From NCBI GenBank assembly GCA_038496445.1, contig JALMLS010000100.1, positions 62,001 to 126,000 of the forward strand: a stretch of DNA of 64,000 nucleotides, in the 5' to 3' direction. The notes below the pieces were generated by a model, which searched no databases, was not told where the DNA came from, and was given only the letters and a program-made list of their open reading frames with translations. The translations under genes and the position numbers were made by a program. Shown here in pieces: positions 5,816 to 16,600 of the stretch; the stretch's first letter is position 1, and every line of letters starts with the position of its first letter. Origin of the DNA: Trichosphaerium sp. ATCC 40318 (lineage: Eukaryota; Protista; Tubulinea).

Positions 5816-7246
5816 TCAGTCACAGTAATACTTATCAAATTCTATTTTGCTCAACTGAGAAACTTCACTGATACACTCATCTGTTACTCGGCCAGCACTC
5901 AAACGAATAATAGGTACACCTGCTAATGCGCGCAACCCTTCATCTGTTATCTTTGTTCCTCGTACTGAAACTTTATGTACACCAGCCAGTGCTTTAATAC
6001 CTTCGTCTGTAATACATTTACTGCCATCCAACATGATAGTGTGTACGCCTGCTAATACTTTTAAGCCCTCATCGGTTATGTGGCGACACCAACTCAATGA
6101 TATGGTATGTACACTAGCCAATACGTTCAATCCTTCGTCTGTTACTCTTGTAGCTGATAAATCAACTTTGTGTACATTACCCAGCGCTTTAATACCCTCA
6201 TCAGTTATGTGTTCACAGCCTGCCACTGATATGGTATGCACACTAGCCAATAACTTCAGTCCTTCGTCTGTTATATTTGTTTCTGCCAAATTAATCGTGT
6301 GTACATCAGCCAACGCTTTTAAACCTTCAACTGTTAAATTGTTGCAACGTTCTAGAGTGATAGTATGAACATTTGCTAAAGCTTCTAATACTTCATCTGT
6401 TATTATACTGGTTCTACTTAGAGTAATCTCATGTACCCCAGACAATAACTTGATGCCCTTTGGTGTTATTGAAGTGCAAAATGATAAACAAATAGTGTGT
6501 ACACCTGCTAATGCTCGCAAACTTTCATCTGTCACGTTTGTAAAAGCTAAATCAATGTCATGTACACCAGCCAAGGATTTGATGCCCTCATCTGTTATCA
6601 ATTCACAATCAAACAAATTGATAGTATGTACACCTGCAAATACCTTCAATCCTTCATCTGTTATATTCGTTTGTGACAACTCAATATTGTGTACACCAGC
6701 CAATGCCTCGATGCCCTCATCTGTTATGCCTTTGCAGTGGTGCATGATGATAGTGTGTACACCTGCCAACGCCTTCAACCCTTCATCGGCCACATCTGTA
6801 TATGATAAATCAATCTTGTGTACACCAGCCAATGACTTGATGTCCTCATTTGTTAAACCAGTGCAATTCTTCAGGCTGATAGTGTGTACGCCTGCCAAAG
6901 GCTTGAGCCCATTTTCTGTTGTAAATTGATAATTCTTCATGTTGATAGTATGTACACCCCGAAGAAGAGTCAAGTGACTGTCGTTCAAATTATTATGCGA
7001 CTTTAACCTAATTGTTGTATTTCGGAGCAATAAGGGACGCTTGGAAAGCATTACCACCTCTTCTATGGTTTTTACCTTGATTCGATTGTATCCAACGTGT
7101 TTGTGGACGATATCTCTCAAAAAGCGGCACGTTTGGGCTGAACGAGGCGCGAACATTCGTTGTTTAAGAATATGGACTATTAACTCTATTGGGAGCGCAA
7201 TAAGGTCAAAAAAGGGTTGTTTAATATCTGCTGGGCGTTTTTTCAT
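5816..7246 (-). CDS. Intronless F-box plus LRR protein (476 aa)
   Basis: F-box-like LPIELIVHIL, then about 16 xGVHTIxL...ITDEG(L/I)KAL repeats in one ORF. Confidence 0.9.
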   Translation of the reverse strand: MKKRPADIKQPFFDLIALPIELIVHILKQRMFAPRSAQTCRFLRDIVHKHVGYNRIKVKTIEEVVMLSKRPLLLRNTTIRLKSHNNLNDSHLTLLRGVHTINMKNYQFTTENGLKPLAGVHTISLKNCTGLTNEDIKSLAGVHKIDLSYTDVADEGLKALAGVHTIIMHHCKGITDEGIEALAGVHNIELSQTNITDEGLKVFAGVHTINLFDCELITDEGIKSLAGVHDIDLAFTNVTDESLRALAGVHTICLSFCTSITPKGIKLLSGVHEITLSRTSIITDEVLEALANVHTITLERCNNLTVEGLKALADVHTINLAETNITDEGLKLLASVHTISVAGCEHITDEGIKALGNVHKVDLSATRVTDEGLNVLASVHTISLSWCRHITDEGLKVLAGVHTIMLDGSKCITDEGIKALAGVHKVSVRGTKITDEGLRALAGVPIIRLSAGRVTDECISEVSQLSKIEFDKYYCD

Positions 7247-7646
7247 TTCGTGTGCAGTTGCGAGTTGTAAGAGACAATGCTCCGATGGTTAATCAAACTT
7301 TTTGCTGCATGTAGTCAACGCATATTCAACAGTGAAAAATTTGGGAGCAATTATTTCAATACTGATTACTGTTAGCCATACATCACATATTCTAGAATTG
7401 CTTGTAGTTCACAGACAAAGTATAGGCGGTACGAGAGTGTGGTATTGTCAGTAACATAGGAAACAATGCTCTTTTTTTTCCTCAATTTTTCTGGTACGGA
7501 CCTTAAGTCATTGATTAACCCTTTTACAAGGCTGGAAGACAAAAACAAAGATTTGTTTAAAATTGTGGGATGTATTTAAGGCTACGGTATTCTACAATTG
7601 ATAACTGTGAGTGAGATTGTGACATTTTTTTTGTTGCTTCTGAAAC

Positions 7647-9830
7647 TCAGTAAACATTTTTGCTCGCAAGTTGTCTTTGTTGTTCGTTAAGAGCTTTGAG
7701 GATTTCTTGTTCTTTTTGCAGTTGTTCCTCATGTTGTCGTATTTTCATTTTTTGTTTGTGTATTTTCTCCGCTAGCTTTTTCTTTTCGTCTGTTCTGCAC
7801 GTGTAATGCAATTTCAGGTCTGGTTCTGGTTTTACTTCTACAACCAAATAGTAAGAAATACCGAACTGGCCTCCGAGTGGGCGGTTACCTGTTTTTACAT
7901 CGTGTTCTATGTCTAGAGTAGTGTGTGGTAATGTCTCATTTTGTGGTGGTGTAGTAATACTACTTGTTTCAGATGGTGTTTCTACAATACATAGTAAGAA
8001 TCCAAAATGAAGTACTGATAGAAGTTACCTTTATTGCTGTGTTCAGCATCAAGGGTAGGTCGTGATACAGTCTCACTTTGTGCTGGTGTAGTAACACCCT
8101 TTTCAGACTCTATGTAAGTTTGAGCGTAACCAGATGTTCCTACATAGTCTTCGATATCATCTTCTCCTGTCAAGTCAATCTCAATTTCATCTTAAAATAA
8201 GACGATAGTATTAGCTCAAAACCTGTATGTTCGACACGTGGTACCATCTGATTCCTCGTTAGAATCCTCGTTTTCCTTTGATGTTGTATCTAAATTCGTC
8301 TTCTGTTCAGTAGAATCACCGCTACCTTGAGAAGTACTACCCTCTGCTTTGGTGATCATGGCATTAGGGTTTGGAGTTAGTGAATCTTCATGTTGGTTGT
8401 CTTCTGCGTCTTCCTCAACTTTTACGTTTGTCATTTCAAAATCACCATCATCTTCGTCTTCATCATCAGAGTCAATAATTATAATTTCATTTGATACAAT
8501 TTCATGCTGCTCTTCTACTTTCAAGGTGTCATCAGGATAGCTGTTTGAAGATTCCTCATCCTTATCATTTTCATCGCTCATGTCTTCTTCGGTAGAACCT
8601 GATTTGTATGGGTTTGGAGACTCTTTGTGTTCTTCATGTTCATCACCTTCAGTTTCTTTAAGCCAAGGTACATCAACACCACGTTTAATCTGTACAATAG
8701 TTAATATTGTTTAACTTGACATGTGATTACCTTGTACGCTTCTGCAGGGCTGTACACAACTACTGCATTCTCGTCAAATCCTTTTCCATCCTATATGTAT
8801 ATATAAGAGAAGCTTTAGGGAAGTGGCGTGTTTACATCAGGTGTAAAGTCTTGTACGACTGATGGTCGAGTTAAAAAAGGTCGATACATCCCAGTATTTT
8901 TTGTGTGCATGTATTCATGTATTGTAGATCCCTTGTTAAAGATTTTCCTCTTCACACCATTAACTGTGCCAGAAGTTTCAATTGCCATCTAAATTTTAAG
9001 CTAAGCTAATACACAAAGGACAACGGTTTGAGTAAAGTAAAGAAAGACAAGTCTCTTTTCTTTTTGGAACGAAAATTGATAAACCTACCTCAGTCAATAC
9101 TCCACCCCATGGTTCACCAGTGAATTTATTACTTACGGTAATTTTCGTCCATTTAACACGTCTATAAGGTATATTATCAAAGCAATAGTAGACGCCTGAA
9201 ATGAAGTTAAGTTAAATCTCTAATTTTGTTGCTACTACCAAAGTCAGAATCATGTGCATATTCGACGTCACTAATCACTTCTCCCATAATGTATTCCTCA
9301 GATGTAGGATCTTGTACAATGACAGTATCTCCTTGCTTCATCTTGAAGAACAATATACTAACTTTGTGATTAGATCTAGCCATAACAATGTCATAAACGA
9401 TTAAAAAAAAGTACTTCATTGTAAGGAAGAATCCTGAACTCGCTGTTATAAGAGTCTTCATCTTTGCTACTCGTTTTTTATGAGGCACAGGCCTTAGTAC
9501 TTGTTAATGGTAGGCCTTGGGAAGTAACGTTAATGTACTTAAGTTGGTCCATGTGCTGTACTATTTCAAGTGTCTTTTCAGACCAAAGAGGGGCAATGAA
9601 CCTTTTAAAACGCTGTCAGCGTTTGAAGGTTTTATTGTACGAGAGTTTTGGTACCCTCTTGTTTTAAAAGCTTCGTATATGGCCCGTGATGGTATTTTTT
9701 CATTCTTTACGCAAATATAAGGAAACACTTTCCACAGTTTTGTTGGCGCGCATTCTTTTTTAGCTTTTTTACGCTTGCCACTGATTCCGACACGCTTACG
9801 CTTTCTACACGCTGCCTTTGGTGTACTCAT
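7647..9830 (-). CDS. Probably nuclear protein: basic NLS, PUA/EVE-like module, acidic low-complexity region, C-terminal coiled coil
   Basis: ATG 9830; spliced MSTPKAACRKRKRVGISGKRKKAKK...LWKVFP...YEAFKTRGFIAPLW...FFKMKQGDTVIVQ...IMGEVISDVEY...RRVKW; later exons are D/E/S-rich; last exon KQKMKIRQHEEQLQKEQ. Confidence 0.7.
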
Positions 9831-9973
9831 ACGTAACACCAGACTTGAGTTTGATTTAGAGACTGTAACAAAACGCAAATCAAATCTGACACAATCTTTA
9901 CAAGTCAATGCATTTCATCAATAAGTAAGCCTTCGCGTAGCAAACATTCTGTACAACATTATTATATTACATA

Positions 9974-10867
9974 CTACAAGGAGGTGCATTGCTTTAGTTT
10001 ACTTTTTTGGGATCCTCTGCTATGATTGTCAACATACTGTCCGTGCCAGGTCGTTGAGGAGGCTCTGGTTCATCGCAGGTACTATTAATAAGCGCTTCCA
10101 TCTCATCCCAGTCTACTTTATTTTCTCGCTAATAAAATTATGTTAAAACCAAGTAAATTAGCAGTTATGGTGTTGCTTACGCGATTTGTGAGGTTTTCTA
10201 ATACATCCAATAGCATTGGTGCGCGATCATTAACAAAGTCTGAGAATTTATCAAAAACTTTTTGCCGCTCGAACTGGGACGGGAAGTAATCAGCCCATAA
10301 AGCCATAACATTACAAACTCTAACGGAAGACATATCACCAATAGAAACACGACTACATAAGACAAACACAGTTAGCGAAAAAAAGATACAAAGTCCAAAT
10401 TTATTTTATTGAAATGATGACGAGATGTTACGCTTTTTTTTACAGTAAACGATGCGTAGGTAACGCAAACATATAGAGGATGTATAGGTGACGTACCTTG
10501 CACCAAAAGAATGGCGCCGGGGTTTCATCCGTTGGTCAAATAGCTTAATTATAATATTAAGCTTCTTCATCGGTGTCACATTTGTGCTTGCGAATAGTGC
10601 ATAAGCCTTATCTCGATCTTAAAAAGGAGAATTTAGAAATTGTAGAGTAGCACAAAAATATTGTAAAACAAATTTGGTGCAAAAATATCTTTTTGTAGAG
10701 TTCGGGGTTATTTTTATTTAAAATACCCCATGCGTACCATATTTGGAGCTTAGAAGAGCTTGTAGTGTCTTTCTCCATCGACGCCATTTTAATGTCCTTA
10801 TTTGTGCAAGAGTGTCTTTTGAGAGCGGTAGCGGTGAAGATACTGATCGTTTCTTCAGTCGGGACAT
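9974..10867 (-). CDS. Small REM (RasGEF N-terminal)-like protein ending in a CaaX box
   Basis: Four exons, about 190 aa: ...AYALFASTNVTPMKKLNIIIKLF...SVRVCNVMALWADYFPSQF...DPKKVKLKQCTSL*; stop 9974-9976. Confidence 0.65.
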
Positions 10868-11310: not shown

Positions 11311-13363
11311 TTTAAAATGTACCTTCTCCAACCACGTGTTTGTTTACTTCGGGTTGCAACAAATAGTGACACGAAACGGTGTCTGGCAACACAAGATGAG
11401 GAGCAACTTCTTTTATACACGCGGCTATTGTTTCAATATCTCCATGCCACCTATGTGGTGTAAGATTGCATTATGTATAGTAAAGACGCACCAGTACGGT
11501 ACTGATACGAGGGTGATACCTAAACCAAAAGTTAAAAAACGTGCTTACCAAAAACAGATTAAAAAACTCCGAAAAGTCAAGTAATTGCACCTGCTTCTTT
11601 ACACATTTGGTACTTCTCTGTATCTCTTGCTTTATACACTAAAGAAGGTACGCTATAGCTATATACGCTATCATGGTAATGATGTTCGCCTAGAGGGATT
11701 ACATAGGTTAGTATAAAGGTTTTAATTTAAGGTACGTACCTTGATATTCAAAAGCCAAATCAAGTTCAGGGACAAATACATCAACTGATATTACATTTCC
11801 TGTAAATGTGTCAATAAGATTGCTTTAATACAATTTGTAACTATGCCCACCTGTTGAGTCTCTTATACCAATCAAGTGTTCTTCTCGCACTTCATAAGAG
11901 TGGAATATCGTTTTTACTTGCTCTATTAAACGCCTATTGAAATAATTTAATGCTTGAAGAACTGACCTGTGAGTACCATTGTTTTGTTTTTTTGTAAACG
12001 TCTCCAAGCTTGTTAAAGTCCCATAATATCTCTGGGTACAGCGTTTTAAGAATACCAGGAAAATAGGCTGTAAGACCCGCAGCACCCATATCAGATAGTT
12101 GAGGACCAGAGACACGATACCAAGTAGTATATAAGTAAAAACAAATACACAAAAGTAGTTACCAGTCTTCTATATTGGCTATATTAAGGTTGCCTTCAAT
12201 ACGCTTTATCGTCTCAATAACCTTTGGCATAGATCGCCAGTATCCTTTGACTTTATTATGGTACCTATTGAGAGTCATTGTCTATCATGGTGAAGCTATA
12301 CGCACAAGAATGATTTTTCGTTCCATTTATACTCAGGGAAAATCGCTTGAAGTGTTCCTTTCAGCGTACCACCATACCTAACAAAGGGTAAATAAATATC
12401 ATTGATGTTAAATTGTACCTTTGCGTTAGTCCATACTCGTTTAGCTGGGAAGGCAAAACTTTGTACCAATCAGACATTACTTTAAATCCAAGATCTCTAC
12501 CAAGTTTGTTGTACCATTTTTTATGATTTTGAACATTGTGCCAGTATCTCTTTGGCGCGTGCCTATTTATAAATACTTCTCTTAGGAACAATCAAAAGCA
12601 GTATATGTCACTTACGAGAACTTATAGTCGATCCAATTATGATCTGGATAAACATTTGAGCAGACATTGGATATCGACTTCCCAAATCTACAAAAAAAAA
12701 CCAAATGTCAAATTACATTGCAAAGTGTCAAAAAAATCAAAAATGTTACTTGTTCATAATGCTAATGCCACCAGCTAATATGATCTCGTTTGATGTTATT
12801 CGATACCAATCATCTAGTACTTTAATACCATAGTGCTTCCCAATCGTGTCCATTCTTTGTCTTCGATTTCTTCTACTTTCCCAGTAACCTCTTGGAGCCA
12901 CACTATTTTTTTTGAGTAATTTTTATTTGTTTATTCACAGCCAATTGGTTTTCGTACCCAAACTTCCATGTCATCCAGCTATTAACTGGGTATAATGCTT
13001 GCACAGCCCTTGAGATGGAATTACCGTATCTAAAGTTTATTAAGGGGTATGAAGTCGTTTTATTGCTCGCACCGCGCCAAAGTATCTGCAGCGCCAGCTT
13101 TGATCATATCTTCGTGTGTAATTCTGTACCAATCATCTGGCTTCCGTATACGTAGGTTTGGTACAACCTGCTTATCAAAAAACTCTCTGTCTCGCATTAA
13201 AACGCTCCATTTTGCGTCTAGAGCGGATTTTCGCTTTTCCTTCTTTCCTTTTGACAGTTATTCAACGAAGTGGTCTCATATTGGTTAAAAGAGCGTCTAC
13301 GATGCTCTAAGTACCTTTCCATATTCTTTGTATTTTACTGGCGGCAACGCTAAAGTTAGCCAT
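11311..13363 (-). CDS. Helical-repeat protein (YW..N...DWY repeats) with a C-terminal RAP/PD-(D/E)XK-like domain; both ends uncertain
   Basis: Repeats such as PKRYWHNVQNHKKWYNKLGRDLGFKVMSDWYKV and PRGYWESRRNRRQRMDTIGKHYGIKVLDDWYRI; C-terminal VDVFVPELDLAFEYQGEHHY...GITLVSVPYWW. Confidence 0.75.
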
Positions 13364-13612
13364 CGTAAGTGGTATCCAACAACACTGACACTTATATATC
13401 AGTAAATTTACAGACTGGCATACGCCACATTTATTGTTAAATAGTGTTTTTGCGAAACGTTGACCAACAACTTATTTTCTCAACCACTTTTTTTGGGTTT
13501 TTTTTTTGAGCAAGTTTGTACGGATTGTAGACCAACAAAATGAAAAAAAACTGAACCTGTACAAAGACCAACCATAGGCATACACGATGGGAAACTATTA
13601 ATACAATCCTGT

Positions 13613-16600
13613 TCAGGAGGCAGCCAGACTTGTCAAATACTCGCAAATTTCGTCCATTGTGGGTCTATTAAAGAAACTCAGTAAACAGAACATTTATCGC
13701 ACTGATAGAGGTACCTGTTTTCTGGTTCTTTTTGCCAACATTTCTTCATAAGGTGCTGTTTTGGAACAATCACGTGAGTATAAAATTGTTTGGTTAGTAT
13801 TCGTTACCTGATAATTTTGAGGTGTAGCCTCTGGATCAACGTCTGGTGTAGCAGCCTTATCTCGTATCCGCCGTGCCAAGTCGAGAATATCAATTTCATC
13901 ATTCCATGGCTCACACTCATGGAATACCTCGTACTACCTCGAATTAACATAGTGTATCTAATGATGTTGTTTATCGTACCATAACACATGCAAAACTCCA
14001 AACATCTGATTCTCTACTATACAATTGTCCAAATCTTTCTGGTGACATCCATTTTACTAGTAAGCTATTTAATACTATGTTTGACGAGTATCATATATTG
14101 ACATACTAGGTCCTGTGGTGCTCATTGTCTTCCCTATAGAATCTTCTGAACCGACAAGGCGAGATAATCCAAAATCAGAAATCTTTGGTACTTTGTTCGT
14201 GTCTAAAAGCACGTTTCCTAAATGGTATTACTAAAATAGTTTTGGCGCAGTTTTTAAAAGGAATGTAATTCTTACTGGCAGCGAGGTCCCTACAAACATG
14301 AATTAGAATGGTAAATTAGGTTAAAATACCTTACCGGTGTACTATCCCTTCTTTGTGTAAATGAAGCAGTCCGCGAGAAATACCCAAAAGTATATTTTCT
14401 TTTTCAGGTAAACTCAGCTTCTTACTCTCGTCCTTAGAAAATAGTAACGTATCCAGAGACCCTCCTTTATGCATGTTAAATTAAATAAGTACAAGAGTTT
14501 GTTACCTGGCATGTACTCCATAATGAGCATATAAATATCATCTTTTACTGAAAACCCAAAAACCTACACCAAAAAACATTAAGCACTTCTTTGCGACTTA
14601 AAAAACTTGCCTGAACGACATTAATGTGAGGACGAAGATTAGCCATAAGTTTTGCTTCTTCAACGAAACTATCTGTTGCGCTAAGGTTTGCACAAATCTT
14701 TATTGCGACTTCAGTATATCGCCAACTTCCTTTTCTTACCAACCCATAATTTCCTGTTACAAATATTATGAATAAGGACCTTTTTTTGCTTTCTTGTTCA
14801 CCTGCACCAAGTTTTTGTCCCAGACTAAGCTCCTTGTAGTCTATTAATAAGTCATTCATTGCGCCAGCTTCACGAATTGCCGACTCAAGATGAGATGATT
14901 CATAACTTTTGGTCTTTCTTAGTGGAACAGGAAGAACGCCAGGATAAGCGGCGCCAGAGTCTAATCGCACATGAGACCTTGTTGTTTCTTCACCACCATT
15001 GATACCATTACGAGAAGGCGTTGATAATGGCTCTTCAATAGCAAGTACAAGAGACTTACCGTTAGAGCTAGGTCTACGCCTTTGTGGAGTTGAAGGTGTT
15101 TTTTTTAACTCTAATTCTTCTGAGAGAGATTTGTTTTTCTTCACCTCTTTCAGAGTTCGGCGCTAAAACAAATTAGCTAACAAAAAGTGTCATCCACGTG
15201 CTCTGTATAGGTATCCTAAGACTATAGCAACGCAAGCGAGCAATAAGAATATAATTACAACAGCTATAATAATGCCATCCCTTGAAGAGATATTTCCTTC
15301 ACCAACAGTTGTATTTGAAGAAGGTGTTACTGGCTGCATAGTTGGCATCGCTATATTTGTTTAGAAGAGACAATATATTGTTTTGTGATAAGGTAATACC
15401 TGTTGTAGGAGCAGTTGGTGCTAAAGTTGTAGGAATTGTTGTAGGTCCCTCAGTTGGACTTTGTGTTGGGCTTACGGTTGTAGGTGGTTCAGTACTGGGT
15501 GGTGTTGTTGTTGGCACTAAGGTAGTTGGAACCGCTGTTGTAGGTGCAACCGTTGATGGCTGTATTGTGGTTGGTGGCGCAGTAGGTGGTTCAGTGGGGG
15601 CTTCGGTAGGACTCAGAGTTGTGGGAGGAAATGAAGGTGGAACTATAGATTTAGTTACCAACTGTTTGACAAATCTGACTTTGGTTCCGTACTTGTGGGC
15701 GGCGCTGGAGGTGATGTACATTGGTCTATGGTGATGTTGGATACCATGTTAGATATCGATAATATTGTTTCATTGTCACAAAGAGTATCAACTAGATCAG
15801 CAGGGAGGATTATTTCTGATCTTATTGACATGTCTAAAATAAATGACACTTGGCGTTTAGTTGTATTGACACGTGTTATCTCTACCACTGTTATATTTGT
15901 TAACCGCTCTATCGCGTCTATAAGTTGAGTTTCTACGGTTTTCTCCGTTAAGTTGGTTTGTAGGGTGATGATCAACCGAACCTTTTTAATATTAAATCAA
16001 ATTAATCACGTGTTAGTTCTAACCACGTACTTCGACTGACGCATTCTGAGGCAATGTAGGTGCTACAGTTGGTTGAACAGTTGGCGATTCTGTTGTTGGC
16101 GGTTGTGTTGTTGGTGGAATAGTTGTTGGCGCAAGTGTTGGAGGTTCTGTAGTAGGGGTCGCTGTTGGCGATTGTGTTGTTGGCGGAGTAGTTGTTGGTA
16201 GTACAGGAGGCGAGGTTGTTGGTGCTATTGTTGGTCCGGTAGGTTGTATAGTTGGAGCCATCGTAGGTGCAGGTGGTAGGGAATAATCATCGATAATCCA
16301 CCCTAAAAATTTTCAATTAAACAAACGATATGTTAAAACCATACCTCTTATCACTTGATTGCGAGAATCAACAAAATTAATATTTACATTAGAGCCTGCA
16401 TTCACAGTAACGCCTATTGGTGTATCCATCTCAGCCTTTTTTATTACTTAATAATCGTTTATAAATAATTGAGAGTTCAACGTACTTCGTACCAAGGTAA
16501 CGAAACTTCATCTTTACTGCCCCTAAGATATTAATTTAACAAAATATATCACATGTCAATTCTTAATTTTAGTACCTAATTCCTGAGCCAATCACTGTCC

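Follow-up and report, generated by a model that had tools for sequence, protein, structure and literature searches.

A divergent DUF8426 homologue encoded by an intron-rich gene of Trichosphaerium

The window analysed here is a stretch of 64,000 nucleotides from Trichosphaerium sp. ATCC 40318. Between positions 7647 and 9830, its minus strand carries short coding blocks separated by AT-rich GT–AG introns of 41–100 nt, and an open frame of 548 amino acids emerges once ten introns are taken out. The features of this gene, in window coordinates, are as follows; P0097 and P0099 are two related amoeba sequences described below.

7647–9830, minus strand: whole gene model, 11 exons and 10 introns, 548 amino acids; a minimal model, with the true 5′ end perhaps further upstream
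9758–9806, minus strand: bipartite NLS-like basic cluster, residues 9–25, predicted only and beyond the reach of the relative's sequence
8836–9737, minus strand: DUF8426-like (EVE/PUA-type) domain, residues ~32–232, exons 1–6, with a core match at residues 51–166
8660–8790, minus strand: conserved extension past the domain, residues 233–262, of no known family and with low model confidence
7838–8659, minus strand: acidic, poorly conserved linker, residues ~263–486, holding introns 8, 9 and 10
8129–8188, minus strand: conserved island EIEIDLTGEDD...GTSGY within the linker
7650–7796, minus strand: C-terminal coiled-coil-like segment, residues ~500–548, judged by eye; P0099 has a similar charged segment
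9602–9654, minus strand: intron 1, 53 nt, GT–AG, predicted; contigs do not cover 9342–10009
9493–9538, minus strand: intron 2, 46 nt, GT–AG; P0099 is unbroken over the junction
9358–9414, minus strand: intron 3, 57 nt, GT–AG, in frame and free of stops
9196–9238, minus strand: intron 4, 43 nt, GT–AG, confirmed by a spliced contig
8989–9088, minus strand: intron 5, 100 nt, confirmed by a spliced contig
8791–8835, minus strand: intron 6, 45 nt, backed by P0099
8690–8730, minus strand: intron 7, 41 nt, backed by P0099
8191–8244, minus strand: intron 8, predicted
7982–8028, minus strand: intron 9, confirmed by a contig
7838–7888, minus strand: intron 10, confirmed by a contig; in frame, without a stop
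9831–10787, minus strand: upstream exons; they may form a gene of their own (162 aa) or extend this one at its N-terminus by 178 aa

The three upstream exons either stop after 162 amino acids or join the gene in frame through introns at 10002–9949 and 9901–9844, a type of joining path that arose in 31 of 500 shuffles; they have no Pfam or PDB match, and no contig covers them. The three-intron, 162-aa frame at 9994–10787 (minus strand) presumably resembles a RasGEF REM domain, a reading without database support. Farther upstream, an intron-rich gene at 11500–13400 (minus strand) contains repeated 'W...N...G....DWY' units and ends in an exon, VDVFVPELDLAFEYQG, that we take to be PD-(D/E)XK nuclease-like and that has no Pfam match; it shares its orientation with the gene studied here and is separated from it by 1.7 kb. 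Exons at 13600–14100 (minus strand) carry protein-kinase motifs (KWMSPE...SDVWSF). Directly downstream, at 5816–7288 (minus strand), lies an F-box-like and leucine-rich-repeat gene whose lack of introns is unusual here and which may be a recent retrocopy or lateral gain.

Two spliced contigs from run X1, which covers only 4% of the words of the stretch, skip introns 4, 5, 9 and 10 at the predicted sites; over exons 4–6 the match to the window is 100% identical across 204 nt, with introns 4 and 5 removed. That X1 is an RNA run is the tool's guess, and exact intron removal is what a transcript yields. Runs X2–X4 contributed nothing informative. If intron 1 is kept, the frame ends at 89 amino acids; with it out, the domain profile match reaches exon 1. 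The 19 residues that intron 3 would encode are absent from P0097 and P0099, and the best-domain profile score is 32.0 if it is spliced as against 25.9 if it is retained. Intron 10 is likewise in frame and stop-free, yet is spliced, so that in-frame introns do get spliced here, which bears on intron 3. The X1 contig matches the window elsewhere but differs from it at 7919–7943 in exon 10, where five substitutions and a 3-nt gap fall within 25 bases, a patch due to allelic variation, a difference between strains or faulty assembly. The gene is real and expressed. The motifs quoted in the original prediction are all present in the minus-strand translation in the order given, they fall in frame after removal of four GT–AG introns, and their order survives the splicing seen in the contigs.

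A HMMER search of 1.84 billion representative sequences with the 98-aa frame of exons 3 and 4 returned two matches. The first, P0097, carries the EukProt label taxid 498012 (Trichosphaerium sp. ATCC 40318), in agreement with the amoebozoan context originally proposed; the other, an SLBB-repeat export protein, was dismissed as chance. P0099 (429 aa) is a cluster mate of P0097 that is longer on both sides. Its alignment to the spliced model begins at residue 60 and runs across the junctions of introns 2, 3, 6 and 7, with identities of 21/46 at residues 60–105, 43/76 at 106–181, 46/81 at 182–262, 21/138 at 263–400, 12/15 at 401–415 (the conserved island), 19/85 at 416–500 and 13/48 at 501–548. 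The two amoeba sequences are thus ~57% identical over residues 106–262, as against 15–22% in the linker. The first 35 residues of P0099 do not align with the model and may represent another frame together with a retained first intron.

We found no further eukaryotic relatives beyond these two sequences, in searches that are weak for spliced genes. A word-based search of longer proteins with the exon 3–4 frame gave 21 candidates, none at E≤0.1, and the same type of search with the relative's domain gave 245, of which the single match was the query itself. Locus searches found none among 108 and 166 metagenome stretches, by a method weak for spliced genes, and none among four and two viral stretches. 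One of 61 genome stretches matched through a chance peptide in an unrelated frame, which we take to be SurE-like.

Against 72,556 plasmid records, the exon 3–4 frame gave four matches. The first of these, and three of the four in all, fall in a single Proteus restriction endonuclease, at its N-terminus (E 2e-3); this enzyme carries a C-terminal Mrr_cat domain and is assigned to PADLOC PDC-S02. All 95 relatives of this N-terminus carry PF28530 (DUF8426). Against a profile built from 96 such N-termini, the spliced protein reaches 33.4 bits (residues 51–163), compared with 6.4 bits for the best of 2000 shuffles. The seed of that profile was chosen by likeness to exon 4, and a second profile was therefore gathered separately: 28 sequences, collected from a 201-genome sample by a profile that contained no window sequence, which score 27.2 bits over residues 52–166 (best of 2000 shuffles, 12.0). 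A 69-sequence profile reaches 36.2 bits (best of 2000 shuffles, 10.9). Profile–profile comparison with hhalign gave a probability of 93–96% over ~100 columns. In the ESM Atlas, DUF8426 clusters ranked first for the window frame (0.87, taken as a lead only) and again for the relative (0.92, with 27 of 30 matches).

Several observations would fit the view that an unrelated protein matches by coincidence through a short strand-hairpin motif (K.GD.V...G.V). The strongest signal lies in one 40-aa exon, the single-sequence E value of the Proteus match is modest, and the motif also weakly matches unrelated PDB chains. Scanned directly, the relative had no match in a Pfam set that lacked the PF28530 model and assigned no family to P0011, a PF28530 carrier, and its best PADLOC E value was 0.0013. 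NCBIfam and PHROGs gave nothing at useful E values for the amoeba sequences. Weak matches to Pfam DUF3104 and DUF5517 fell below the cut-off and were set aside. We nevertheless regard coincidence as very improbable: the match is ordered over five exons, three profiles beat 2000 shuffles each, the language-model search finds DUF8426 separately and the likeness holds in the second amoeba sequence. Residues ~33–200/230 are homologous, by sequence comparison, to DUF8426, the domain with which restriction proteins of the Mrr_cat and McrB types begin. The relatives named in the original prediction, the N-termini of Mrr- and McrB-type proteins, are thereby recovered by profile searches.

The module had been placed at 9140–9745. 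Its end moves: the domain extends to at least residue ~200 and probably to ~230 (~8930–8836). The C-terminal third, with a V.R...LGS.LTLF strand and the last helix, can be aligned in two ways that end near residue 200 or 232. In the loci collected, the domain either has Mrr_cat, McrB/AAA_5 or NucS-like domains as fusion partners or stands alone, and in one phylum a DUF8426-type domain was matched in 27 of 201 genomes. Some McrB-like proteins (L033–L041) carry a DUF8426-like domain after Walker A, within the GTPase region and not at the N-terminus. L026:1033–1983 combines the domain with a NucS/YhcG-like nuclease; this protein and its relatives L027, L030 and L031 lack the conserved Trp after strand 2.

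The amoeba protein retains none of the catalytic partners that we looked for. Its 548 residues contain no Walker A, DxGxD (Mrr-type) or HNH pattern, three PD-(D/E)xK-like patterns all lie outside the domain in acidic sequence, and P0099 matches no Pfam family at all, in line with the earlier statement that no nuclease or GTPase domain is evident. The exon frames, P0097 and P0099 have no match to Pfam EVE. On sequence grounds, the most fitting label for the protein is divergent DUF8426 homologue; it is neither a restriction enzyme nor a Pfam EVE member.

The flanking features expected from the original description (an NLS-like cluster, an acidic region and a helical-looking tail) are all present. 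Twelve Lys or Arg residues fall within residues 1–29, and the acidic region holds 71 Asp or Glu in 228 residues (263–490). The conserved island in the linker may be SUMO-interaction-like, with acidic flanks. Its IEIDLT does not fit the strict four-residue SIM core, hXhh or hhXh, as given in the available text of PMC8616421; IIII at residues 321–324 fits but is not conserved.

We modelled the structure of P0011, a nuclease-free bacterial family member, from an 85-row alignment and obtained a pLDDT of 90.7. The model superposes on 1wmm (Z 11.4, rmsd 2.7, 116 aligned), on VcaM4I (6yex; Z 10.2, rmsd 3.2, 123 aligned) and on 6k6u (Z 9.4), with a best Foldseek E value of 2.5e-5; Foldseek and VIA-align rank EVE first, followed by YTH, ASCH and archaeal McrB N-terminal domains. 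The DUF8426 family is thus predicted, from this model, to be EVE/YTH-like within the PUA superfamily. Among solved structures, PDB EVE chains included, none matches the family in sequence.

For the amoeba protein itself, residues 36–245 of the relative, which lack strand 1 and the first helix, were modelled with a mean pLDDT of 59.7, confident over ~110 residues and steered by bacterial alignment rows. The model has the same order of helices and strands as the family over its first 110 residues and a pLDDT of 34–56 in the C-terminal third of the domain. Foldseek gave no match at E≤0.001 for this truncated model. In VIA-align the five best rows are all EVE-type, with 103–115 residues aligned at Z 3.6–4.4, values within noise, and they start near VcaM4I residue 20, where the missing part would end. 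The truncated model is consistent with an EVE-like fold for the amoeba protein and is not proof of it. The PUA-like fold originally proposed is accordingly borne out for the bacterial family member (Z up to 11.4), and for the amoeba protein it has weak EVE matches (Z ≤4.4). On the three points singled out beforehand, then, the fold predicted for the family is PUA-like, profile searches recover restriction-associated proteins and splicing leaves the motif order intact.

Compared with 69 family rows, the amoeba domain keeps W33, F55, W65, G115, D116, V118, G131, R157, V159 and W161; conservation counts for the first third are lower bounds, since that part is misaligned in nine McrB-type rows. 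The family residue is replaced at the Gly position before W65 and at Q121, E126, V137 and P155; at the Gly position, Q121, V137 and P155 it is replaced in both amoeba sequences. The Q121 site, at the end of strand 3, is Tyr in 39 and Pro in 18 of the 69 rows, the V137 site is Tyr in 61 of 69, and the P155 site is His in the family. EVE domains are described as flipping 5mC or 5hmC into a pocket, and in VcaM4I the flipped base is held between P24, W82 and Y130, according to the parts of PMC7897488 available. Judged from strand order and not from superposition, W65 and Q121 would form part of the wall of the corresponding site. We found no ligand for any DUF8426 member in the literature.

These residues bear on what the domain might recognize. 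It could share the same origin and fold but bind RNA or unmodified DNA, or read an RNA mark as YTH does, with a general adaptor role for nucleic acids during splicing, export or transcription, a possibility we take seriously without preferring it. For the family, YTH structures follow closely after EVE (Z 8.4–9.4), the pocket-region substitutions occur in both amoeba sequences, and PUA and EVE domains were first seen as RNA binders, with PUA-superfamily domains binding RNA (available text of PMC6765204). The bacterial fusion partners, by contrast, are DNA-directed (Mrr_cat, McrB/AAA_5 and NucS-like), and EVE stands above YTH for both models, by small margins. Alternatively, the barrel may persist in a new role, as a structural part or a platform for protein interactions that reads no base, as in PcdA of Staphylococcus, a precedent taken from the accessible part of PMC10602043. 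The very long branch noted below, an insertion of 13 residues behind strand 1, perhaps another of 27 residues farther along, and the amoeba-specific conserved extension all speak for such a change of use. We think it unlikely, given a domain that is still net basic (28 Lys or Arg compared with 21 Asp or Glu) and that keeps W65 and the RxVxW strand.

The restricted distribution of the amoeba sequences raises the matter of origin. In a tree of 71 rows, obtained by a quick search, using one in three of P0002–P0096 and leaving out L022 and L028 (duplicate or broken), the amoeba pair falls among Mrr_cat-type rows (SH-aLRT 89) on a very long branch of 4.07 changes per column. The tree resolves no donor and contains no giant-virus member. 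A high rate of lateral transfer is reported for Trichosphaerium, together with many giant-virus-like genes, ~40% of them with introns, in the sections of PMC10521059 available; the part of one supplementary file of that paper that was available contains no mention of 'restriction', 'Mrr' or 'McrB' and two of 'EVE'. Lateral acquisition of the domain is likely in view of the narrow range seen, the size of the bacterial family and the high transfer rate of Trichosphaerium. The original prediction had described the amoeba as bacterivorous; this finds no support here, as members of the genus are called algae-eating in the same partial source (PMC10521059).

A route through giant viruses, which had not been raised before, is a possible alternative. 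An ESM Atlas DUF8426 cluster of 63 members is 67% viral, mostly Nucleocytoviricota, with 27% of its members carrying the family, and Mimiviridae proteins match the family fold (TM 0.54, 12% identity; BFVD A0A5B8HWU3 and A0A5B8IFV0). A viral motif scan gave four loci, one with a true domain, which is McrB-fused. Giant viruses thus appear to encode short stand-alone DUF8426/EVE-like proteins, of which we found no mention or report in the literature. This viral content also figures in a further proposal, that the amoeba protein is a defence sensor of non-self methylation on foreign DNA, from a giant virus or ingested bacteria, that triggers silencing or a separate nuclease and possibly arrived through a giant virus. 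The abundance of giant-virus-like genes in Trichosphaerium (PMC10521059, in part) and the PD-(D/E)XK-like gene upstream on the same strand would be in keeping with it. We consider it quite unlikely, however, as the viral stretches searched held no relative of the amoeba protein, gene adjacency means little in eukaryotes and the neighbour's nuclease exon has no Pfam match.

Homology and domestication are well supported, and every functional step that follows is conjectural. With no cutting domain, the protein is likely, on prediction, a borrowed nuclear reader; our preferred reading, held tentatively, is a domesticated, laterally acquired EVE-like nuclear reader or adaptor of a modified DNA base. 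The basic cluster would import the protein into the nucleus, where the basic EVE-like barrel would bind DNA and flip a modified base (5mC/5hmC or 6mA) into the pocket that keeps W65. The lost nuclease may be replaced by two regions that would recruit chromatin or SUMO-modified partners and oligomerize, namely the acidic linker, where the SIM-like motif sits, and the coiled coil at the C-terminus, and the likely outcome would be that modified DNA is marked or silenced, not cut. Hypermethylation of viral insertions is described in Acanthamoeba (PMC12210455, in the portion available). The EVE-like fold is shared with known readers, yet fold alone does not show function, and we found no paper on both Trichosphaerium and methylation. 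A broader scenario, which we regard as doubtful, is that the lineage captured a restriction specificity domain, bacterial or by way of a giant virus, and rebuilt it as a SUMO-linked nuclear reader that silences modified foreign or integrated viral DNA.

The Mrr_cat-fusion DUF8426 family (PDC-S02) is presumably COG4127. In the parts of the sources available, the N-terminal domain of COG4127 was left without a fold in a 2005 paper (PMC1189080), and COG4127 is listed among McrB aliases (PMC11090510). With bacterial DUF8426 proteins the amoeba protein shares the ordered motifs W..F..W, K.GD.V, G.V.S and R.V.W; it differs in being encoded by a eukaryotic gene with ten introns, in having no nuclease or GTPase, in its insertions and replaced conserved residues, and in adding a basic cluster, an acidic linker and a coiled-coil-like tail. 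The predicted fold of the family is that of EVE proteins such as VcaM4I, PH1033 and human THYN1 (Z 7.5–11.4), although in DUF8426 strands 2 and 3 are separated by an additional helical insert and the amoeba protein has no sequence-level match to Pfam EVE or PDB EVE chains. THYN1, a eukaryotic EVE protein, is reported as enriched with 5hmC DNA (PMC7897488, in part). THYN1-like EVEs are widespread, whereas the DUF8426-like protein was found in two amoeba sequences only. PcdA of Staphylococcus aureus is likewise a restriction-system protein with EVE domains co-opted for housekeeping, but it is bacterial, keeps its McrB NTPase and acts in cell division, as the available part of PMC10602043 has it.

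SRA, EVE, YTH, DCD, ASCH and RAMA readers are thought to derive from prokaryotic restriction systems, mostly through old transfers. That eukaryotes repeatedly took reader domains from restriction systems is set out in PMC4738411 and PMC7641849, in the sections available. Like YTH, DCD, ASCH, SRA, RAMA and HARE-HTH, the amoeba domain is a restriction-associated recognition domain of prokaryotes reused in a eukaryote; unlike those broad, described families, it looks like a narrow, separate acquisition of a family left unnamed in those sections. At best, the protein would work in the manner of THYN1-, SRA- or YTH-type readers. Co-option of such readers is a known theme, and DUF8426 in eukaryotes is apparently unreported: we found no report of it in the literature, subscription papers being outside that scope, and the name DUF8426 in no paper.

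The Trichosphaerium gene looks like a narrow, separate case whose steps are visible: nuclease lost, introns gained and nuclear-type signals added. Model-based comparison also gives the widespread DUF8426 family a predicted EVE/YTH-like structural assignment, and a natural member free of a nuclease is a handy tool for finding the DUF8426 ligand. If the protein is a reader of the kind proposed, it would be a eukaryotic epigenetic reader that arose anew and independently, and its ligand would also show what bacterial DUF8426 recognizes.
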